Notes: generated by a model from the letters alone, not told the origin. Positions 9,184 through 19,603 are shown, counted from the stretch's first letter. The stretch is 64,000 nt of DNA from an uncultured Eubacteriales bacterium (GCA_902793605.1 CADBEB010000014.1:3265-67264); one strand, 5' to 3'. Translations and numbers: made by a program.

Positions 9184-9224
9184 AAAAAGCCGGCAGAGTC
9201 ATTCTGCCGGCCTTTCTTTTGTTT
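9184..9224. terminator. bidirectional rho-independent terminator
   Basis: Stem GCCGGCAGA (9189-9197), loop GTCAT, stem TCTGCCGGC (9203-9211). Flanked by an A-run and a T-run, between convergent genes. Confidence 0.7.
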
Positions 9225-9268: not shown

Positions 9269-10207
9269 TCAGCCGTTTCCATCCTTCTCGGTCAAGTCGA
9301 CTGAGGTAATGGACAGGCTGCCGGAGGGAACGAATCCGCGGGCCGTCTGTCCGTCGATCGTGGTCTCGACATAATCCCACGCACCGTCATTGTACATCGT
9401 CGTCAGGTAAACCACCGTCTGTCCGGCAGATACGGTCGTCAGGGTGTTTCCGGTCAGAGCGGGATCATCGGTCACATTCACCGTCTCGAGCACTTCGCAG
9501 CTGCTGCCGTCCCAGACCAGCTGTCCCAGGTTGTCCTGCGCTCCCTTTTTGAACTTCGGGCTCCAGATGTACCCAACACGGTACTGTCCCGCATGGTTGG
9601 CTTCATACAGCATCAGCATCCAGCCGTTCTCCCAGCCCAGGCCATAGACGGCGCCGTTGGTGGAGCAGGTGGCTTTTCCGTTGTTCGCCCGGTAGGCGTC
9701 GATCGACGGCGCCGTAAAAACGGGGAGCTTCTGCTTGGCTGCCAGGTCCACATACTCAAAGCCCCGGGGCTTGTTCACGTTCGCAGCCGGCGGCTTTGGC
9801 ATGCCGATTCCGCCTTTGTTCGTCACGCCCTGGTCGCGCATATCCCTGCGTACCGCTTTGATCAGGTCAACATTCCGGTTCTCGATCGTTGAGCACTGGC
9901 TGTAGGCCTCGTGATGGTTGCTGGAGCTCTCGCTCTCGTTCGCGTGATACCATGGCATCTGATTGAACCAGTTGTAGCATCTGCTTCCGGTTTCAAACTT
10001 GTAGCCGTGCCGTGCGTAGATCTCGTTGAACGCGTACAGCAGCGTATCGTATCTGTATTCCCAGAGCTCGTCGTAGGTCAGCGCCCTGGTATCGCTGTCC
10101 GGGATGATATAGAGTGAGTCCGCGGCAGCAAATACCGGAACCAGCAGGCTGCCCAGCAGGACTGCCGACAGAAGGATGGCTGTGATGATCGTTTTTCGGG
10201 TTTTCAT
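9269..10207 (-). CDS. YARHG domain plus SH3-like domain secreted protein
   Basis: Start re-set to ATG 10207 (AAGGAGGAGATTTTC upstream), giving MKTRKTIITAILLSAVLLGSLLVPVFAAA. Literal YARHGYKF motif. C-terminal SH3-like GQTVVYLTTMYNDGAWDYVETTIDGQTARGFVPSGSL. Confidence 0.8.
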   Translation of the reverse strand: MKTRKTIITAILLSAVLLGSLLVPVFAAADSLYIIPDSDTRALTYDELWEYRYDTLLYAFNEIYARHGYKFETGSRCYNWFNQMPWYHANESESSSNHHEAYSQCSTIENRNVDLIKAVRRDMRDQGVTNKGGIGMPKPPAANVNKPRGFEYVDLAAKQKLPVFTAPSIDAYRANNGKATCSTNGAVYGLGWENGWMLMLYEANHAGQYRVGYIWSPKFKKGAQDNLGQLVWDGSSCEVLETVNVTDDPALTGNTLTTVSAGQTVVYLTTMYNDGAWDYVETTIDGQTARGFVPSGSLSITSVDLTEKDGNG

Positions 10208-10245
10208 GAAAATCTCCTCCTTGTAAATAATGTATGATGAATCCG

Positions 10246-11673
10246 TCACCTGACAGATTGCTTTACCGTATCAAGAAGCGCCCCGTAGAGGATCTTCCCG
10301 GCCTCATTGGTCGGGAACTCATCAATGACCTCGACCCTGAACGAGGGACGGACAACGCTGATCTTCTGCCGGATATAATCCTCAACGGCTTTTTTGTCCC
10401 CTTCGCTCAGGACGAAAATGACCAGAAGATCATCCACACCGGAACTCACGCACCGGACGTTAATCCCGTTCATGATCCTTTCATCGATCTCGTCGAGGCT
10501 GATCCGGTGGCCGAACATCTTGATCACCCGCTTCAGGCGCCCGATGATATACAGGAAGCCCTCCTCATCCCTTTCGGCGATATCGCCGGTCCGGAGCTCC
10601 CCGTGCCAGTCGTCTCCACGGCTGAGATCTTCACCGCTGGCAGCATACCCCAGGGCGACGTTTTTTCCGCGATAAACCAGTTCTCCCTGAACATGCTTCC
10701 CCTCGACAGGGTTTCCTTCGGCATCGATCAGTCTGATCTCCCCGTCCGGAACGGCGATCCCGACTGATCCCGGCTTCTCCAATGCTTTTTCAGCAGGCAG
10801 GTACGTGATGGCAGCCGTCGCCTCGCTCTGCCCGTACATAATGATGAAACGCTTGCCGTAATCCGCGGCATACTGTGCGAAATACCGCTGCAGGTTCGGG
10901 CTCAGTTTGGATCCGGCTTCGGTCATCAGCTTCAGATCGGGGAAATCGTCACAGAAGAAATCCATCTTATACAACATATCATAGGTTGTGGAAACGCCGT
11001 GAAAAGCCGTCACATGCTCGTTTTCAAACAGGTCCCAGAAATCCTCGTCCATGACCCCCGCCCGCGTGACGATCATCTTCGCGCCTTTCATCAGGTTGGC
11101 ACCGAAAATGGAAAGCCCGTAGGTATAGTTCAGCGGCAGCGCGGTGATGGTGCGATCTTTGTCCGTTATGTCCAGGTAATCCCCGAGCAGCTGTGCGTTA
11201 ACCCGTACATTCTCCCGGGACTGCCGGACAAATCTGACCGAGCCGGTGGAACCGGAGGTCGTCAGCAGCTGGCCGAGTCCCGGGTGCACCGTCCATGGCT
11301 CCGAATAGTTGGTTCGGAGCAGCACGTAGCTGTCAACCGTCCGGATCTCCGCCATGTTCGGATACTCGCCGCGCAGCGCGCGGGGAGCAAAGATCATCCC
11401 GGGACGGTAGGTATTCATGATCTCCCGGCGCATATCCCCGGGCATGCCCGCCGATGCCATCAGCATCGGATGTCCGCTGTTCAGCAGCGCGGCATATCCC
11501 GACAACGCGCCGATGCTGTTCTCGCACATCATCATCGTCAGTTCCCCGGGGCAGATCCCAAATAGCTGATCCTGAAGCGCTTCCAGTTCGTCGTAGCGTA
11601 TGGTAACGCCTGTATCGTCGATGAGCGCGGTGTTCCTGCCGAAGGCACTGAAATCCCAGACCCTGTCCATCAT
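10246..11673 (-). CDS. stand-alone adenylate-forming enzyme (DltA/NRPS A-domain-like AMP-ligase)
   Basis: Core motifs LLTTSGSTGSVRFV (A3), YGQSEATAAITY (A5), GELVYRGKNVALGY (A6), RTGDIAERDEEGFLYIIGRLKRVIKMFGHRISLDEIDE (A7/A8), PTNEAGKILY (A10). ATGA overlap with the upstream gene. Confidence 0.85.
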   Translation of the reverse strand: MMDRVWDFSAFGRNTALIDDTGVTIRYDELEALQDQLFGICPGELTMMMCENSIGALSGYAALLNSGHPMLMASAGMPGDMRREIMNTYRPGMIFAPRALRGEYPNMAEIRTVDSYVLLRTNYSEPWTVHPGLGQLLTTSGSTGSVRFVRQSRENVRVNAQLLGDYLDITDKDRTITALPLNYTYGLSIFGANLMKGAKMIVTRAGVMDEDFWDLFENEHVTAFHGVSTTYDMLYKMDFFCDDFPDLKLMTEAGSKLSPNLQRYFAQYAADYGKRFIIMYGQSEATAAITYLPAEKALEKPGSVGIAVPDGEIRLIDAEGNPVEGKHVQGELVYRGKNVALGYAASGEDLSRGDDWHGELRTGDIAERDEEGFLYIIGRLKRVIKMFGHRISLDEIDERIMNGINVRCVSSGVDDLLVIFVLSEGDKKAVEDYIRQKISVVRPSFRVEVIDEFPTNEAGKILYGALLDTVKQSVR

Positions 11674-12608
11674 CCGTTCCCTCCGTCTGCCTGTTCCAGC
11701 TTGCTTTTGATCAGGACAAGGCCGTCGTTGTAGGATTTCAGCCGCATCGCTTCGCGTCCCCGGATCGAGACGCTGAAGGCCTCCTCCAGCCGGCTGATCA
11801 GCGCCATATGCGCCACAGAATCCCAGCCGATATCGTGGTACCGGAAAGCGACCGGATTGAAGTCAATCCCTTCAAAGCAGGCGCTGAACACATCCCAGTA
11901 CCGTTCCGCGATACTCTTCGGCTGCGCTTCTTCTTTCTTTTCCGACGACTCAAGCGCCTTGCTCGGCGCGAAAACATCATTCTGCACACCTTCGCCGGAG
12001 ATCCGTGCCGGGTTGCCGATCACCGTAACACTGTCCGGCACATCCCCAAACACAGCGGCGCCCAGCGCCACAACGCTGAAAGAACCGATTTGAATACGAT
12101 CTTTCAGCAGCGCACCGGCACCGATGAACGCATTCTCCCCGATCACGGTATGCCCGCCGACAAAGGCGTTGACACCCAGCCGGGTATGGTCGCCCACGAC
12201 CGCGTCATGTCCGACGCAGGCATTCAGTGAAAGATAGCAGTTCCTGCCGACTTTGGCACGCGAGCCGACAAACACTCCCTGGCAGACAGCCGTCCCTTCC
12301 CCCACTTCGGCGTCGGGACTGATCTGCGCGGAGCTGTGCACAAGCCGGCCGCCGGTGTACCCCGCCCGGGTCATCCGTTCAAACGCCTCCAGCCTGAACT
12401 TCGGCTCCCCGATAGCGATAACAAAGCGTACCCCGTCCGGCCTGAACTGCGCCCGGAAATCCTGAAACGAATAGACCGGACAGCCGGCAAGTTCCTTCGT
12501 TTTCGCATGGTCGTCGATGAAGACGATCCCGGACCACTCACCGCTTTCCTCCGCGATCATTCTGAATTCGCGGCCGATCGCCCCCGCGCCGAATAAAGCA
12601 AGGATCAT
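11670..12608 (-). CDS. NeuD/PglD-like left-handed beta-helix acyltransferase fused to a C-terminal carrier-protein (ACP/PCP-like) domain
   Basis: GGAGGAAAG RBS. N-terminal Rossmann-like MILALFGAGAIGREF, then hexapeptide repeats (VGRNCYLSLNACVGHDAVVGDHTRLGVNAFVGGHTVIGENAFIGAGAL). An acidic linker leads into HDIGWDSVAHMALISRLEEAF, which carries a phosphopantetheine-type DS motif (about 11670-11915). Confidence 0.8.
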   Translation of the reverse strand: MILALFGAGAIGREFRMIAEESGEWSGIVFIDDHAKTKELAGCPVYSFQDFRAQFRPDGVRFVIAIGEPKFRLEAFERMTRAGYTGGRLVHSSAQISPDAEVGEGTAVCQGVFVGSRAKVGRNCYLSLNACVGHDAVVGDHTRLGVNAFVGGHTVIGENAFIGAGALLKDRIQIGSFSVVALGAAVFGDVPDSVTVIGNPARISGEGVQNDVFAPSKALESSEKKEEAQPKSIAERYWDVFSACFEGIDFNPVAFRYHDIGWDSVAHMALISRLEEAFSVSIRGREAMRLKSYNDGLVLIKSKLEQADGGNG

Positions 12609-12648
12609 GTCTTTCCTCCGTTCTGCTGTGTGTTTTGATCCATCTGGA

Positions 12649-13455
12649 TCATTTTGTTTCCAGCGATTCTCCCCAGGCTGCTTCGATTTCTTTCCTTACA
12701 ATGCTCATCTGTCCGCGTTCCTTCGCGCTGTACAGCGGTTTTCCGTCCGCATCGCGTCCGGTGATCAGCCGGCTGAGGCATCCCTGTTCCCGGACGATCT
12801 TCCTGCTCTCCGGATAAACCAGTTCGAACGCCATGCAGCAGTGGGAGATACACACGTCGAAGCGGGTCTTCCGGAGGTCTCTCGGAACACAGCGATGCTG
12901 AAGTACACACTCCATCACCGCGTCACCGGCCCCCTCCGTTTCCTGCAGCAGTCCCTTGCTCGTTCCGGCTCGTTCTTCAAAGGAGAGCTCCGTCACAACG
13001 CGGAAGATGTCCGCCTTGTCCGCGTCCCGGATCAGGTCGCAGAAGCGCCGTGTTTCTTCGTCCTGATCCCCGGGCAGGGTGAGCTTGTTGTGCAGCCGGA
13101 TGGCCGTTTCCAGGAGCGCCAACCGGTCCGGTGAGAGCCCCTGAGCGGGGAATTCATGAATCAGGCCGTCTTTGAACAACAGATCCGCGCCGAATTCCGC
13201 GTGGTCCACCGAAACGGAATCGACGAACGTTCCGTACCGGCGGACCTGCTCAAAGCGCCCGATGTCGTGAAGCAGGCCCAGGAACCAGGCAAAGGCTGCG
13301 TCGTCGTCATCCACGCGCAGGCTCACCGCGATCCGCTCGCAGTTTCCTGCAACCCGCAGGGTATGCTCGATCTTGTGCCGGATCATGGAATTGTCCGGAT
13401 CATAATGGGATGTGTAGGCATAAAAGGCTGCCTCGGCTTGCCTCCTGTCGATCAT
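12649..13455 (-). CDS. HD-domain phosphohydrolase family protein
   Basis: H...HD signature (IEHTLRV...LLHDIGRFEQ...DHAEFG...RDADKADI). ATGA overlap with the ABC gene stop. Confidence 0.8.
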   Translation of the reverse strand: MIDRRQAEAAFYAYTSHYDPDNSMIRHKIEHTLRVAGNCERIAVSLRVDDDDAAFAWFLGLLHDIGRFEQVRRYGTFVDSVSVDHAEFGADLLFKDGLIHEFPAQGLSPDRLALLETAIRLHNKLTLPGDQDEETRRFCDLIRDADKADIFRVVTELSFEERAGTSKGLLQETEGAGDAVMECVLQHRCVPRDLRKTRFDVCISHCCMAFELVYPESRKIVREQGCLSRLITGRDADGKPLYSAKERGQMSIVRKEIEAAWGESLETK

Positions 13456-15593
13456 TCGATATCCTCCCCTTCCATATCACGGATGGCCTGCTCAAAGTCT
13501 TCATACCGCATAAGCTTTCCCTGTTCGATCCTGCATATGGTCTCCGCGCGGCGCAGCGTGTTGATCCGGTGGGCCACCATGATGACTGTGCAGCTGCCCA
13601 TCATCGCGTCAATGGCCTCCTGTACCTGCTGTTCGCTGACAGTATCCAGGGCGCTGGTGGCTTCATCCAGCAGGATGATCTTCGGTTTCCGGAGAAGCGC
13701 CCGCGCTATGGAGATCCGCTGCCGCTGTCCGCCGGAAAGGTTTTTGCCGTTCTCAAGAATCGGGGTGTTCAGTCCCTCCGGCAGCGACTCGACGAGATCC
13801 TCCAGTCCGACCCGGCGGATGACGTCCATGACGGTTTCGGTACTGATATACTGCAGCCCGTAAACCAGGTTATCCCACAGCGTACCGGAAAACAGCACCG
13901 TCTGCTGCGGCACCACCGCGATATTCCGGCGGTAAGCCGTCTTTTCCAGCGTGTCCAGGTTGATCCCGTCGATGAGGATCTCCCCCTGCTGGATATTATA
14001 CATCCCCAGGATCAGGTTCAGGATCGTCGTTTTCCCTTCTCCGGATTTCCCGACAAAAGCAATGCTTCCCCCGGCCGGCACGCGGAAACTGATCCCCTTC
14101 AGGACGGGGTCCTGATCCGCCTCATAGCCGAAGGTCACCTGCCTGAACTCGATCTCGCCCTGTACAGGGGAGGGCAGCAGTACGGTTCCGTTCTTTTCCA
14201 GATCCCCCGCGTACAGGATTTCGTTCACGCTCTTCAGGCTGTCATATCCCTGGGTGATCATCGGCACCGAATCCAGCATCCGCTGCACATTGCTGATGAT
14301 CATCTCAAAGATGGACTGAAACAGCACCAGCGTACCGACTTCAATATGTCCGGTCGCCGTCAGCAGGGCGGCAAAACTGAGGGAAAGCAGGCGAAGCCCC
14401 TGGAAAACCCCGTAGGTAACGTTGTTGACGCTCACAGTCTGCCGGTCGTAAAGCACCGCCGCCCGCTGCGCGCTGCGAACCTTCGCAAGGATGCTCCTGT
14501 ATTCTGTTTTCGCCAGGCCGTGGGCTCGGTTCAGGCCCTCCATTTCCAGCATTTCCTTGACGGCGGCGCTGACCTGCTCATTCTGCTTGCGCATGCCGGC
14601 CCGCCTGTCCTGCATGGGGCCCGTGAAACGGCGCAGCAGGAAGATCACCGCGGGGATGATCGCGGCATAGAAAGCCAGCATCAGCGGGAATTTCATCAGC
14701 GCGACCACGATGATGAACACGACATCCTCGCTCAGGTACAGGACCTCCATAAACCGGTCGTAGATCAGCATCTGAATGAACTGGACGTCGGAAACCAGTT
14801 TGGAAAGCACCACGCCGCTCTGCGTCCCGCTGTGGAAGCGCATCGAAAGCACCTGCAGCTTCTGGACAAGCGCCATCCGGAAGCCGGCTTCCACAGCCCT
14901 GGTGAACCGGCGGTAATACCGGCTGTCCAGCCAGTAGCAGATCAGGTTGACGGACAGCGATACCAGCGCCATCAGGATATTCAGGTATACAGGCCCGGTG
15001 AAGAAGGCGCCGGTCTCCGTCACGATGTTGATAATATTGGAAACGAAGACGGGCAGCATCAGGGCGCCCAGGTGTTTCAGCAGATGGATAAAAACCGAAA
15101 GCGCAAAGAAGCCCTGATGCCTGCGCGCAATGTATCGCAGCACGTCCGTCGGCTGATGCGGTGCTGCAGGATCAGCGTTCCGGTAGTACCCATAGATCTC
15201 TTCGGTCAGATCAAATGTGTTGCTTTTTCCGCCATATATGCTGTACAGATTGATACCGTTCACATACCGGTAGTTGTAATGATCAGTGTATTGTTCCAGC
15301 AGGCAATCGTTGATCTGCCTGCCAGTGTCGTTCTTTTCCGCTTCCGGCTTCGCGGGGATTTCATCCGCCCGTTTCCCCCGGGCCCGGATTTCGATGTGTT
15401 TGAATAACAGGCCTTTTATGGATACGCTGATTTCAGGGCACCCAGTATTCAACAGCCGAAGCAGCAGTTCCTCACAGATCAGCGGGCAGGCCGGCGTTCC
15501 CGGATCGCCGGGGAACGACGCGGCAAACTGTTCAGCCAGTTCCACCGCCGCCGGGATCTCCGATATTCTGGTCACCCTGACCCGAATGCCCAT
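13452..15593 (-). CDS. ABC exporter (TMD-NBD fusion) with an extra N-terminal cytoplasmic domain of about 165 aa
   Basis: Start re-set to ATG 15593 (GGAGG about 7 nt upstream). The track ORF runs to 16388 and overlaps a real + strand gene. Six-TM type-1 exporter core, Walker A GKSGEGKTT, signature LSGGQRQRISIARAL, Walker B ILLDEATSALD. Confidence 0.85.
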   Translation of the reverse strand: MGIRVRVTRISEIPAAVELAEQFAASFPGDPGTPACPLICEELLLRLLNTGCPEISVSIKGLLFKHIEIRARGKRADEIPAKPEAEKNDTGRQINDCLLEQYTDHYNYRYVNGINLYSIYGGKSNTFDLTEEIYGYYRNADPAAPHQPTDVLRYIARRHQGFFALSVFIHLLKHLGALMLPVFVSNIINIVTETGAFFTGPVYLNILMALVSLSVNLICYWLDSRYYRRFTRAVEAGFRMALVQKLQVLSMRFHSGTQSGVVLSKLVSDVQFIQMLIYDRFMEVLYLSEDVVFIIVVALMKFPLMLAFYAAIIPAVIFLLRRFTGPMQDRRAGMRKQNEQVSAAVKEMLEMEGLNRAHGLAKTEYRSILAKVRSAQRAAVLYDRQTVSVNNVTYGVFQGLRLLSLSFAALLTATGHIEVGTLVLFQSIFEMIISNVQRMLDSVPMITQGYDSLKSVNEILYAGDLEKNGTVLLPSPVQGEIEFRQVTFGYEADQDPVLKGISFRVPAGGSIAFVGKSGEGKTTILNLILGMYNIQQGEILIDGINLDTLEKTAYRRNIAVVPQQTVLFSGTLWDNLVYGLQYISTETVMDVIRRVGLEDLVESLPEGLNTPILENGKNLSGGQRQRISIARALLRKPKIILLDEATSALDTVSEQQVQEAIDAMMGSCTVIMVAHRINTLRRAETICRIEQGKLMRYEDFEQAIRDMEGEDIE

Positions 15594-15881
15594 CCTGATG
15601 CCTCCGTTTGTAAACAAGTCTGTCACATCTGTTAGTTTACCATATTCATTGGCTATTTCAACAGGACATTCATCCGGAAAAGGCCAGTGCAGCCGCTGCC
15701 GGATCCCGTTGACGATGACGAAAAAACAGGATTTGACGTAAAAGTATTGCTTTTCTGCTTCATTCAGATATGGTATGATGTGTTCAAAGCAAGAGAACAG
15801 GCGGCGACCGGAAAGCAGGAACGCTTTCACATTCGTTTCGATTACTGACAGATACTCATCGGGAAAGAAGGCGATTGCATA

Positions 15882-16829
15882 ATGAAGCGCATACTGGCCG
15901 GGTGGCTGGCCGTAATGCTCCTTTTTGCGGCGGGCATCACGCTGGCAGAAAACCCGGGAGAAGAGAACACCGTCAGCATTGAAGAATCCCTGGTTTCCGG
16001 GGAAGGCATGGATCCGGGCTCCACGGAGCAGAACGTCCGTATGATCCAGGGGCTGCTGAAGAATGAGGACATCCGGGAGATCCTGAAAAACCCGGAAGTG
16101 AAGTCCGTCCTTTCGGATGTTATAAGCAAGATCCTGGTCTGGATGGTCCGGAACAGGGAAGTCACCATGAAGATCCTCACCGAGATGGGCGTCAGTGAGG
16201 CTGACCGGAAAAGTGTCGAAAAGATCTGGGACAGCCTCGAGCGCATCAATGCCTCCAATCAGGAATACCTGGAAACCGATGACGGCAAACAGCTTGCGGC
16301 TGAATATGCCGCCGTTAAAAGCGATCCGGATATTATCGAAGCCGTAAAGGACTTCAGAATGCTGTCCTCCTCCGAGGACCTGGAACATCTGCTGAAGGTG
16401 CTTGGTGAGGCGGTGGCAGCCGACAAATCAAACGATGAAATGGAAAACGGCAGGCTGACCCAAGCCGTCATGAGCAGGGAGATTGACAATAAGACCTTTG
16501 TCGGCAACATCATCCTTAAGATCATGCATGTTCTGGATCAGAGCCCCTGGGTGCAGAAATCAGCTCCGAAACTGGCGAATAACGAAAACCTCATGAAATT
16601 CCTGAACCACCTGGCCAAGGGATCTCCGGAACAGGATAAGCTGATCCGGACCGAGCTGCAGCTGATCCTGGGCGACCGGGAGGTCAACCACTTTATCCAG
16701 AAAGTCCTCCGGGATGGCCATGCGCTGTTCAAAGCCCTGGACAATCCATCTGAACCGGCTCCGGAACCGGAAAACAAAGGACAGGAAAACCCGGAACACG
16801 ATAATATCGTTGAGGAGGCTGCCCCATGA
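15882..16829 (+). CDS. secreted hypothetical protein, helical and acidic, no recognised family
   Basis: Signal peptide MKRILAGWLAVMLLFAAGITLA. Protein-like composition. Its stop overlaps the ATG of the next gene (ATGA at 16826). Confidence 0.7.
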   Translation: MKRILAGWLAVMLLFAAGITLAENPGEENTVSIEESLVSGEGMDPGSTEQNVRMIQGLLKNEDIREILKNPEVKSVLSDVISKILVWMVRNREVTMKILTEMGVSEADRKSVEKIWDSLERINASNQEYLETDDGKQLAAEYAAVKSDPDIIEAVKDFRMLSSSEDLEHLLKVLGEAVAADKSNDEMENGRLTQAVMSREIDNKTFVGNIILKIMHVLDQSPWVQKSAPKLANNENLMKFLNHLAKGSPEQDKLIRTELQLILGDREVNHFIQKVLRDGHALFKALDNPSEPAPEPENKGQENPEHDNIVEEAAP

Positions 16830-19279
16830 GCGATAAAAGCATTCAGGCAAGGCCTGACGTCCCGGCGGGACTGGTATTCTTCGAGGCCCATGAAAAACCC
16901 CGGCAGTATGTGATCTTTGACAAGGCGCTGATCAAAGGCCGGCAGGAGATGGACGTTTTCACCCCCTCCGGGCTCCAGCTGACCTATCCTTTCCTGGACG
17001 AGGAACAGTGCGAGATCCGCTTTGAGAATGGGAAATGGCTTTACAAAAACCTGAGCGAGAACGTGTTCTCCTTCGTCGGCGGCAAGCTCCTGCCCTGCGG
17101 GGCGGAACAGGAACTGAAGGACAGCATGGTCATCCGCCTGTCCAACGACCGGATGCTCACCGCGGTCTTCCTGAAGGAATTCGCCTCCTCCACCGACTGG
17201 CAGATCATCAACATGGACGACGGCCGCCACACGGTCGTCATCGAAAACGAGGCGTGGGAAGAAGGCAATTCAGCGCTCACCCTGGAGTATGAGAACAGCC
17301 GCTGGCAGCTGAAGGACATCGGCGTCACCGCCCTGCTGCTGAACGGGCAGCCGCTCCGCGAGCCGACCGCCCTGCAGTTTGACGACTGCCTGCAGATCGG
17401 CGAAACCCGCTTCATCTTTGAAGGCTCCGGCATGCTCTACGGCGTCCATTCCCGGCAGGGCGGACTGAGCATCGCCATCGACGAGCGGACCGTCAAGAAC
17501 GCGATGAAGAAATACACCCTCCTCAAGGACATCCGCCTGTCCATCGAACCGGGCAACATGGTCATGATCCTGGGCGGATCCGGCGCGGGCAAAAGCACTT
17601 TCGTCAACGCTGTCACAGGATATGAAAAAGCCAAGGCCGTGATCACGGAAGGCGGTCTCGACTACTATAAACAGTACGACCAGGTCAAGCACCGGATCGG
17701 TTTCGTCCCCCAGGAAAACCTGATGCGCGAGGAAGATACGGTCCGGATGACAGTCAGCAATGCCGCGGATCTCCGGCTTCCCGCCTCGATGTCCCAGGAG
17801 GAAAAAGCCCGGAAGGTCCGGATGGCGCTGGAAACCTTCGGTCTCGCCGGCCGGGAGGATACGCTGGTCAGCAAGCTCTCCGGCGGACAGAAGAAGCGCC
17901 TTTCCATCTGCACGGAGTTCGTGGCAAGCCCCAACCTGTTCATCCTGGATGAACCCGACTCCGGCCTGGACGGCATCATGGCCCGCGGTCTGATGGAAAA
18001 CCTGCGGCTGATCGCCTGCCAGGGAAAGATGGTCCTGGTCATCACCCACGCACCGGACCGGGTTGCAAACCTGTTCGACAAGGTAATCGTGCTCGCCAAG
18101 GGAACGGAGTCCAGGATCGGCCAGCTGGCCTTCTATGGCGGGATCCGGGAGGCTAAGGACTTTTTCGGAACCGACTCCCTGGAGAACGTCGTCAAGCGGA
18201 TCAACGCCGTGAACGAGGGCGGCGAAGGCCGGGCGGACGAGTTCATTGAGAAGTACAAGGCCTATGCCGCGGAACGGGACGCCATGGACAGGGACGACTT
18301 CCGCGAAGCCGGTGCGGAACAGGAGGAAGAATCCGTCACGGACGTGGATGTGAGCATCCGCTACAAGAGCCGCCTGGGACAGATTCCCATTTCTTTCGGC
18401 AAACATCTCCGGATGTTCATCAACGAGGGGAACTGGAAGGTCCTTCCCCTGTCGGCGATCATCGCCTACCTGGTGGTCTATGTTATCGGCAAGCGGATGT
18501 TCATCAACATGGAAGGTACCTCCTACGCCGCGTTTGCCATCACCTGCGTGTGTATCTGGAACGGCGTGTTCAATTCCATCCAGGTCGTCTGCAAGGAGCG
18601 CGGGATCATCAAGCGGGAGCACCGGGCCGGCCTGCACATCTCTTCCTACCTGTTGTCCCACATGGCCTACCAGGCGATCATCAGCCTGATCCAGACGATC
18701 ATCATGGTCGCCATCTTCCAGATCTTCGGCGTGTACATGCCCTCCAAGAGCGTAATCACCGGCAGCTTCCTGGTGGACCTGTCCATTACGATCTTCCTGA
18801 TCACCTATGCCGCGGATATGCTGGGCCTGATGATCTCCTGCATCGTGCACACGCCCATGACCGCCATGACTGTGATGCCCTTCGTGCTGATCGTCCAGCT
18901 GGTGTTCGCCAACTTTGTCATCCCGCTGAACGCTTTCGGCCAGAAGGTCTCCAACATCACCATCAGCAAGTGGGGAATCCAGGCCATCTGCGCGGTATCA
19001 GACTACAACAGCCAGGAGTCGACCGTACTCCTGACTGCGCTGAACACCATGAACAACCGGGATCCCGAGAGCCTGGTCTCCCGGATCCAGCGGGTGCTCT
19101 CCATTGATGAAGTCAACCACAAGGTGGGACAGTTGACCGCCGCCCAGCTGCAGAAAGCCAGCTATGCCTTCACGACAGAAAACGTCCTCAAGAACTGGGG
19201 CATCCTCCTTGGCTTTACGCTGCTCTATGTGGTGATCGGTCTTATATTCCTCGAACAGGTTGACCATGACAAGCGCTAG
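16826..19279 (+). CDS. ABC transporter fusion: two FHA-like modules, ABC ATPase and ABC-2 (ABCG-like) permease
   Basis: N-terminal about 200 aa with FHA-like strands (EIRFENGKWLYKNLSENVFSFVGGKLL; RWQLKDIGVTALLLNGQPL...LQIGETRFIFEG). Walker A GGSGAGKST and LSGGQKKRLSICTEF...FILDEPDSGLD. C-terminal 6-TM ABC-2 region. Confidence 0.85.
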   Translation: MSDKSIQARPDVPAGLVFFEAHEKPRQYVIFDKALIKGRQEMDVFTPSGLQLTYPFLDEEQCEIRFENGKWLYKNLSENVFSFVGGKLLPCGAEQELKDSMVIRLSNDRMLTAVFLKEFASSTDWQIINMDDGRHTVVIENEAWEEGNSALTLEYENSRWQLKDIGVTALLLNGQPLREPTALQFDDCLQIGETRFIFEGSGMLYGVHSRQGGLSIAIDERTVKNAMKKYTLLKDIRLSIEPGNMVMILGGSGAGKSTFVNAVTGYEKAKAVITEGGLDYYKQYDQVKHRIGFVPQENLMREEDTVRMTVSNAADLRLPASMSQEEKARKVRMALETFGLAGREDTLVSKLSGGQKKRLSICTEFVASPNLFILDEPDSGLDGIMARGLMENLRLIACQGKMVLVITHAPDRVANLFDKVIVLAKGTESRIGQLAFYGGIREAKDFFGTDSLENVVKRINAVNEGGEGRADEFIEKYKAYAAERDAMDRDDFREAGAEQEEESVTDVDVSIRYKSRLGQIPISFGKHLRMFINEGNWKVLPLSAIIAYLVVYVIGKRMFINMEGTSYAAFAITCVCIWNGVFNSIQVVCKERGIIKREHRAGLHISSYLLSHMAYQAIISLIQTIIMVAIFQIFGVYMPSKSVITGSFLVDLSITIFLITYAADMLGLMISCIVHTPMTAMTVMPFVLIVQLVFANFVIPLNAFGQKVSNITISKWGIQAICAVSDYNSQESTVLLTALNTMNNRDPESLVSRIQRVLSIDEVNHKVGQLTAAQLQKASYAFTTENVLKNWGILLGFTLLYVVIGLIFLEQVDHDKR

Positions 19280-19360: not shown

Positions 19361-19603
19361 TTACTTCTTGATCCAGAGGTACTCGCCGGTACGGATCATG
19401 TTGGTACCCTTGTTGATGTGGGGATTCCACTCACGGATCTTGTGCCAGTCCTTGATGCCGTAATGGTTGGCAATCCGGATCAGGGTATCGGTCGCTGTGA
19501 CCTTGTGCTGGATCCAGCCGGGCTTGTCTTTCTCGGGCTCGAAGTGGATCTTGCCGCCGGAGACTTCTTCCAGTTCATTAAGATTCAGTTCATTGTTATC
19601 CAT
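19361..19603 (-). CDS. 80-aa protein: double-glycine (GG) leader fused to a single LysM domain
   Basis: Start re-set to ATG 19603 (AGGAGG 8 nt upstream). Product is MDNNELNLNELEEVSGG followed by KIHFEPEKDKPGWIQHKVTATDTLIRIANHYGIKDWHKIREWNPHINKGTNMIRTGEYLWIKK. Confidence 0.8.
   Translation of the reverse strand: MDNNELNLNELEEVSGGKIHFEPEKDKPGWIQHKVTATDTLIRIANHYGIKDWHKIREWNPHINKGTNMIRTGEYLWIKK

Follow-up and report, generated by a model that had tools for sequence, protein, structure and literature searches.

The locus described here lies in a stretch of 64,000 nucleotides (nt) of DNA from an uncultured Eubacteriales bacterium (GCA_902793605.1 CADBEB010000014.1:3265-67264), referred to below as the window. 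Positions 9269-15593 of this 64 kb window contain five open reading frames (ORFs), all on the minus strand and tightly packed. In the order of transcription they encode an ATP-binding cassette (ABC) exporter, an HD-superfamily phosphohydrolase, a NeuD/PglD-like transferase fused to an acyl carrier domain, a stand-alone adenylate-forming ligase, and a secreted YARHG-domain protein. The ABC and HD genes overlap by 4 nt, as do the fusion and ligase genes, while gaps of 40 nt and 38 nt separate HD from fusion and ligase from YARHG, respectively. The first-pass annotation of this stretch, which had described five same-strand genes with 4-nt overlaps or gaps of 40 nt or less, is thus borne out by the ORF coordinates, and its domain assignments for all five products hold in Pfam and NCBIfam scans. 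What had to be corrected is the start codon of the YARHG gene and an SH3 call of sub-threshold quality (see below). The conserved element at this locus is the group of HD phosphohydrolase, transferase-carrier fusion and ligase, and not the five-gene operon. The probable function of this module is to join an unusual acid to an amino compound.

Plus-strand genes border the five-gene unit at both ends. The unit displays one promoter-like site, ribosome-binding sites and one terminator hairpin. The promoter-like site (15634-15661, minus strand), located upstream of the ABC gene, reads TTGAAA, 16 nt, and a TG-extended TAAACT, and is a consensus match only. A GC-rich hairpin (9189-9211) with T-runs on both strands (9184-9211) is a candidate terminator for the five-gene unit as well as for a convergent SBP_bac_5 gene.

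The conserved triad

Synteny was scanned with one genome per species, and the full-length fusion was recovered in 28 loci, all of them from metagenome-assembled genomes (MAGs) of Clostridia, mostly from the rumen or gut of ruminants. One of the MAGs with the triad is GCA_040274055.1. The HD gene lies directly upstream of the fusion in 25 of these 28 species-level loci, and the ligase gene directly downstream in 27. A 4-nt overlap of the HD and fusion genes is frequent among triad loci. Since the flanking genes vary widely between triad loci while HD and ligase stay beside the fusion, the triad is the conserved unit. Conserved synteny, by which the five-gene proposal could be judged, is thus found for the core only: the ABC exporter accompanies it in some lineages, and the YARHG gene in near-identical contigs. 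One MAG has the module twice: L023 is a full triad, and L032 has HD and fusion but no ligase, with an ABC gene on the opposite strand next to them.

Among the variable neighbours, two recur. A DASS-like anion symporter is found in 11 loci (L006 12461-13816 and ten others) in three arrangements, and a secreted alpha/beta hydrolase in 7 triad loci in more than one arrangement. At one locus (L004 6443-9012), genes for fumarase and malic enzyme are divergent from the DASS-like symporter. This combination may hint at a dicarboxylate as the activated acid.

The fusion gene (11670-12608, minus strand; ATG at 12608, preceded by GGAGGA) encodes PglD_N and Hexapep domains followed by a C-terminal carrier. 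Residues 1-205 (11994-12608) constitute a left-handed beta-helix N-acyltransferase domain of the PglD/NeuD/PerB class. The protein scores 179.8 bits against TIGR03570 (NeuD/PglB/VioB), above the family cut-off of 160.8, and Foldseek comparison of residues 1-205 yields template modelling (TM) scores of 0.84-0.90 to PglB-ATD, PerB, WeeI and VioB. The pair His134-Asp135 is invariant and aligns with the HD pair of WeeI; His134 (12207-12209) is the predicted catalytic residue. A flexible linker of low complexity follows (11922-11993, minus strand), with a predicted local distance difference test (pLDDT) value below 50; its length is variable, as reflected in a spacing of 29-52 residues between the GNPAR and YWE motifs across 117 homologues.

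The acyl carrier domain comprises residues 230-312 (11673-11921, minus strand) with a GWDSVAH motif, in which Ser264 (11817-11819) is the predicted site of phosphopantetheine attachment. A profile of this domain (A3) retrieves almost only acyl carrier proteins (ACPs) from the PDB, the best match being 2lml_A (E = 7.5e-8) with the WDS motif aligned to the D-S-L site. This entry may be GmACP3, and the paper on GmACP3 reportedly defined the WDSLxH/N carrier motif. Of 117 full-length homologues, 116 keep the W-x-S motif with its serine. With the transferase above its family cut-off and the carrier profile matching ACPs, the assignment of the first-pass annotation as a NeuD/PglD-like transferase fused to a carrier stands. 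Public annotation lists the protein as 'NeuD/PglB/VioB acetyltransferase' and misses the carrier domain, which renders the module invisible in current gene catalogues.

The ligase (10246-11673, minus strand) is a 475-aa adenylate-forming enzyme of the ANL superfamily (Pfam AMP-binding, 130.4 bits against a cut-off of 29.9). Its core motifs A3, A5, A7, A8 and A10 are readable as TSGSTG, YGQSEAT, RTGD, GRLKRVIKMFGHRISL and the lysine of NEAGK, respectively. The position equivalent to Asp235 of PheA and other amino-acid adenylation domains is Thr in the window ligase and T, V or S in all of more than 40 relatives, in an alignment with a manually entered GrsA reference whose numbering is self-consistent. 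The absence of an Asp at the alpha-amino-binding position, as previously claimed, is thereby confirmed, and the ligase lacks the Asp that marks enzymes of the nonribosomal peptide synthetase and DltA type. Matches in NCBIfam include long-chain fatty-acid ligases, far below their cut-offs.

The HD gene (12649-13455, minus strand) encodes a metal-dependent phosphohydrolase of 268 aa (Pfam HD, 36.8 bits against a cut-off of 22). Six putative metal ligands (H31, H63-D64, H85, H122, D146) are invariant across 20 homologues, and the AlphaFold2 model is all-helical with a pLDDT of 90. A PDB profile search returned one marginal match. In Lachnospiraceae bacterium JC7, which is in culture, an HD homologue with 65% identity lies at the end of a contig. 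With 3376 clusters at 50% identity (E <= 0.001), the HD protein belongs to a large family, and among its members are proteins (P0243, P0258, P0263, P0287, P0296, P0302) in which the HD domain is fused to TMP-synthase-like, NUDIX, HAD, histidine-phosphatase or inositol-monophosphatase (IMPase) domains. Such fusions point to hydrolysis of small phosphoesters or nucleotides by this family, rather than to a protein substrate.

Unfused relatives and known systems

Outside the fusion family, identity in the transferase domain falls to 29-37%. The nearest unfused NeuD homologues (L036-L039, L042; 32-35%) are exactly those that have a separate WDS-type carrier (35-39%) and a ligase (41-45%) as neighbours. 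Genes for NeuB, a DegT aminotransferase, an RmlA-like protein, a 4,6-dehydratase, LuxE/LuxC, FabA, a protein of the SDR family and a thioesterase are found in the loci of unfused relatives. A capsule locus of Parabacteroides distasonis (L094) encodes an acetyltransferase, carriers, a ligase, KASIII and an SDR protein among glycosyltransferase genes. Taken together, the cassettes of L036-L042 and L094, which come from gut Bacteroidota and Clostridia, resemble the triad in transferase (32-35%), carrier (35-39%) and ligase (38-45%), and share the WDSxxH motif and the ligase pocket positions. They differ in that their genes are separate, lie among genes for NeuB, DegT, dehydratase, KASIII, SDR, LuxE/C and glycosyltransferase, and have no HD partner; the HD protein is absent from all glycan and unfused loci examined. 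These sequence relationships indicate that the triad descends from unfused cassettes in polysaccharide loci. The first-pass annotation had proposed a logic of activating, loading and transferring an acid and had compared it with N-acylation of O-antigen sugars by a dedicated ligase and carrier. Both the logic and the comparison are well supported by the domains and by the closest unfused relatives, which lie in polysaccharide and nonulosonic-acid loci. A related side observation concerns the Metabacillus plasmid pB218 (L093 8763-12089), on which a WDS-type carrier and a ligase with 40% identity to the window ligase are followed by an MBOAT acyltransferase, a Dlt-like arrangement with the same loading cassette.

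The chemistry as such is known: carrier-dependent N-acylation of amino sugars takes place in surface-polysaccharide pathways. In Vibrio cholerae O1, VC0248-VC0252 (wbeK-O, also rfbK-O) are the tetronate genes that N-acylate perosamine of the O-antigen, with roles taken from the original annotation. By these roles, the set resembles the triad in its dedicated carrier, its AMP-forming ligase of about 471 aa and its hexapeptide-type acyltransferase, and the placing of a non-acetyl acid on a 4-amino sugar would be a further common trait. Two of the intermediate loci (L038, L039) share LuxE/LuxC-type genes with it. The triad differs from the V. cholerae O1 genes in that its carrier is fused and an HD protein is added, whereas tailoring enzymes, perosamine, glycosyltransferase and O-antigen genes are missing nearby.

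The stand-alone enzymes PglD, PglB-ATD, PerB, WeeI and VioB share with the fusion the two-domain fold and the catalytic His-Asp pair. They take free acetyl-CoA (acetyl-coenzyme A) and act on nucleoside-diphosphate (NDP)-4-amino-4,6-dideoxyhexoses, whereas the fusion protein possesses a carrier of its own and a partner ligase. From sequence, this pairing would imply a tethered, non-acetyl donor instead of free acetyl-CoA. A precedent for a beta-helix N-acyltransferase taking its acyl group from an acyl-ACP docked at the C-terminal end is provided by the LpxD-ACP complexes, whose entries 4ihf and 4ihg are among both the PDB profile matches of the carrier and the Foldseek matches of the transferase.

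Exporter, YARHG gene and the remaining window

The ABC gene (13452-15593, minus strand) encodes an ABCB-type half-transporter of 713 aa with a transmembrane domain and an ATPase (Pfam ABC_membrane and ABC_tran). Although the open frame extends to 16388, the ATG at 15593 is preceded by GGAGG at 7 nt and by the promoter-like site, and gene callers likewise give a length of 713 aa in identical metagenome contigs. Coordinates and domains of the exporter as first annotated (15593-13452) are therefore retained. The best NCBIfam match is MsbA (TIGR02203) with 295.8 bits, short of the cut-off of 602; likeness to MsbA, HepA and bacteriocin exporters is generic and far below all family cut-offs. The N-terminal domain of about 140 aa (15174-15593, minus strand), presumed to be cytoplasmic, contains an invariant CEELL..LL and is shared, with 31-57% identity, by the ABC partners at other loci; it has no match in Pfam or the PDB, profile search included. 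About 7 of the 28 loci (L009, L012, L013, L021, L024, L031, L032) have an exporter of this subtype no more than 8 kb from the triad, in three arrangements, and contigs L001 and L089 have one as well. The subfamily of about 710 aa occurs also away from the triad.

The gene downstream of the ligase (9269-10207, minus strand) encodes a secreted protein of 312 aa with a YARHG domain (Pfam). Its true start is the ATG at 10207, behind the strong ribosome-binding site AAGGAGGAG, and not the GTG at 10249. Of the former description as a YARHG/SH3 wall-binding protein, the YARHG domain is retained; the SH3 assignment goes back to a sub-threshold SH3_3 match (E = 0.013), and 'wall-binding' is dropped as well. 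Apart from the near-identical contigs L090-L092, no other triad locus has a YARHG homologue, and the gene was accordingly rejected as a member of the module. Judged from its spacing and signals, it appears to be co-transcribed here, and it is a lineage-specific passenger outside the conserved module. The gene at this place varies by lineage. It encodes a DUF6273/NAGPA phosphodiester-glycosidase-like protein in L089 (11411-13324), a lipoprotein of 174 aa in L001 (12353-12877) and a protein of about 500 aa without assignment in L011 (10487-11992), as compared to YARHG in the window (9269-10207). That each lineage has a different secreted protein or lipoprotein after the ligase is a hint of a role in the envelope or outside the cell.

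Elsewhere in the window, genes look mostly housekeeping-like in a rough ORF survey. A tblastn search of the 64 kb that took every ORF of five related polysaccharide loci as query, complemented by a Pfam scan that covered part of the window genes, found no homologue of sugar-pathway genes. As to a riboswitch that might point to the ligand, Rfam yielded no match, whether for the window, the leader region or nine related loci. A defence system was considered and rejected: PADLOC matches are restricted to a generic ATPase and Cas3-HD, and neither the fusion protein nor the ligase has one.

Divergent from the operon, a gene at 15882-16829 (plus strand) encodes a secreted protein of 315 aa without family match, which is conserved in near-identical contigs only and is directly followed by an FHA-domain ABC-2 transporter (16826-19279, plus strand). 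The latter adjoins a gene at 19361-19603 (minus strand) for an 80-aa protein with an N-terminus like a double-glycine leader (MDNNELNLNELEEVSGG) and a subsequent LysM domain (Pfam, 9.6e-6). A secreted LysM peptide processed in the manner of a bacteriocin is one possibility for its product.

Proposed reaction scheme, alternatives and implications

Based on these observations, we infer a scheme for the direction of acyl flow, the classes of acid and acceptor, the HD step and export. The ligase would adenylate a carboxylic acid without an alpha-amino group and thioesterify it onto the phosphopantetheine arm at Ser264. The tethered acyl-pantetheine would then enter the groove of the transferase trimer that holds acetyl-CoA in the stand-alone enzymes, where His134 would activate the amine of the acceptor, resulting in an N-acyl product. 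By its fold, the transferase would most likely use a nucleotide- or phosphate-bearing amino sugar as acceptor, and the HD protein may take off this handle, nucleotide or phosphate, either ahead of acylation or following it. In this lineage, the translationally coupled ABCB-type exporter could export the product or something derived from it. Steps one to three are suggested by homology and conserved residues, HD action and export by gene coupling only. That the carrier sits at the C-terminus would agree, by analogy, with the docking of ACP to LpxD. As a functional account of the module, we put forward the complete scheme of five steps tentatively, with a confidence slightly short of even. The earlier hypothesis, in which an acylated small molecule or envelope modifier is produced by the module and exported, is possible.

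Several results weigh against this scheme. As a single sequence, the carrier domain scores 16.9 bits against Pfam PP-binding, below the threshold of 20.8, and the four carrier helices of the structural model, of which helix II begins at Ser264, are of low confidence (pLDDT below 50). A gene for a phosphopantetheinyl transferase was not identified in the operon or nearby, where no systematic search was made. Ten pocket positions of the ligase are nearly identical in triad, polysaccharide-locus and MBOAT-linked relatives; the same code across contexts with different tailoring enzymes does not discriminate between them and thus gives no clue to the acid, and we abandoned the attempt to read the acid from it. 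The HD model has no close structural relative, as Foldseek matches are weak and generic HD nucleotide hydrolases (best E = 0.03), which makes the HD substrate a guess. With regard to export, most triad loci have no ABC gene of this subtype within 8 kb, and homologues at 50-55% identity occur in unrelated contexts. An obligate role of the ABC gene is ruled out by these relatives elsewhere, and the exporter is a facultative partner in some lineages only. Finally, about 30 triad loci contain no genes for NDP-amino-sugar synthesis. The module may therefore not be self-contained.

This last point leads to the alternative which survives best. The module could play an accessory role in a glycan pathway whose genes lie elsewhere in the genome, such as one for capsule, nonulosonic acid, or the glycosylation of S-layer or flagellin, and would there N-acylate an NDP-4-amino-4,6-dideoxyhexose for glycosyltransferases, with HD and ABC proteins peripheral or otherwise employed. 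The fold of the transferase is closest to enzymes acting on UDP-, GDP- or dTDP-4-amino-4,6-dideoxyhexoses, and every unfused relative sits in a glycan locus of this kind. Moreover, the V. cholerae O1 ligase WbeL, similar in size (471 aa) to the window ligase, is required for O-antigen (PMC3441752). However, across about 30 loci with otherwise varied neighbours the triad never adjoins a dehydratase, aminotransferase or glycosyltransferase gene, and the extras which do recur are transporters and secreted hydrolases. Polysaccharide genes normally cluster. In addition, the constant partner HD is not found in the glycan loci examined. Steady detachment from sugar genes together with a constant HD partner argues for a distinct role, and we regard the accessory role as unlikely, while still deserving serious attention.

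In its widest form, the proposed scheme would see the triad and its exporter, anion-symporter and secreted-hydrolase partners as a self-contained pathway. A small acid, possibly dicarboxylic, would be taken up or activated and, by way of the covalently tethered carrier, N-linked to a common phosphorylated or nucleotide-bound amino compound; the HD protein would strip the handle, and a new N-acyl amino-sugar-type metabolite or glycolipid would be released to the surface or the medium. This extended version appears improbable.

The remaining alternatives are less likely than both the five-step scheme and the glycan accessory. The module recalls the Raetz pathway of lipid A, in which a beta-helix N-acyltransferase fed by ACP at its C-terminal end (LpxD), a metal-dependent phosphohydrolase (LpxH) and an ABCB-type exporter (MsbA) participate. 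Following this logic, a fatty or hydroxy acid would be charged onto the carrier and then N-linked to a UDP-amino sugar, HD would cleave the pyrophosphate, and the MsbA-like ABC protein would flip the glycolipid into a Gram-positive envelope. After NeuD, the transferase matches LpxD and LpxA next best in NCBIfam, in line with MsbA as best match of the ABC protein and with the long-chain fatty-acid ligases among the ligase matches; there is a parallel between LpxH, LpxD and MsbA and the order of HD, transferase and ligase plus ABC gene, and the genes after the ligase encode secreted proteins or lipoproteins. Yet all of these LpxD/LpxA, MsbA and ligase matches are far below family cut-offs, the transferase fold is of the PglD/PerB class and not that of LpxD, nothing indicates a long acyl groove, HD is unrelated to LpxH, and the ABC gene is absent from most triad loci. 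The resemblance is an analogy only, and a lipid-A-like function is quite doubtful.

Slightly less probable still is an action of the HD protein on the fused carrier itself. E. coli AcpH is a non-canonical HD-family phosphodiesterase, and no other gene is as tightly coupled to the fusion as HD; by stripping phosphopantetheine or freeing acyl-phosphopantetheine, the protein could regulate or reset the carrier. This is opposed by a Pfam search at E <= 0.01, which assigned the protein to generic HD and HDOD families and gave no match to the AcpH family, and by the breadth of the HD family, whose fusions with NUDIX, HAD, IMPase and phosphatase domains suggest small-molecule substrates.

Envelope acylation of the Dlt type, in which a wall polymer would receive an acyl or aminoacyl group from the ligase-carrier pair, is largely excluded already and highly unlikely: although an adenylating enzyme loads a small dedicated carrier as in DltA/DltC and the related Metabacillus cassette has an MBOAT gene after it, the five operon proteins include no MBOAT or DltD match in Pfam/NCBIfam (as stated in the first-pass annotation, whose D-alanylation analogy is weakened thereby), the transferase is a soluble, cytoplasmic PglD-class enzyme, and the ligase lacks the amino-binding Asp.

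We return to the proposed scheme of a ligase-charged carrier that feeds its own transferase. In the literature we found no relevant description of a NeuD-carrier fusion or of systems combining HD, ligase and hexapeptide proteins, and none of the covalent linkage of transferase and carrier, the obligatory HD partner or the stand-alone genomic setting. To our knowledge, carrier-dependent N-acylation in V. cholerae O1 and in many capsule loci has so far been only inferred from homology. If the scheme is true, no PglD-class transferase before the fusion protein would have been shown to draw its acyl group from its own tethered carrier, and the module would offer a compact and tractable model of two or three proteins for carrier-dependent N-acylation. 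The module occurs across many uncultured Clostridia of rumen and gut, and could point to a new surface or secreted metabolite in an agriculturally important microbiome.

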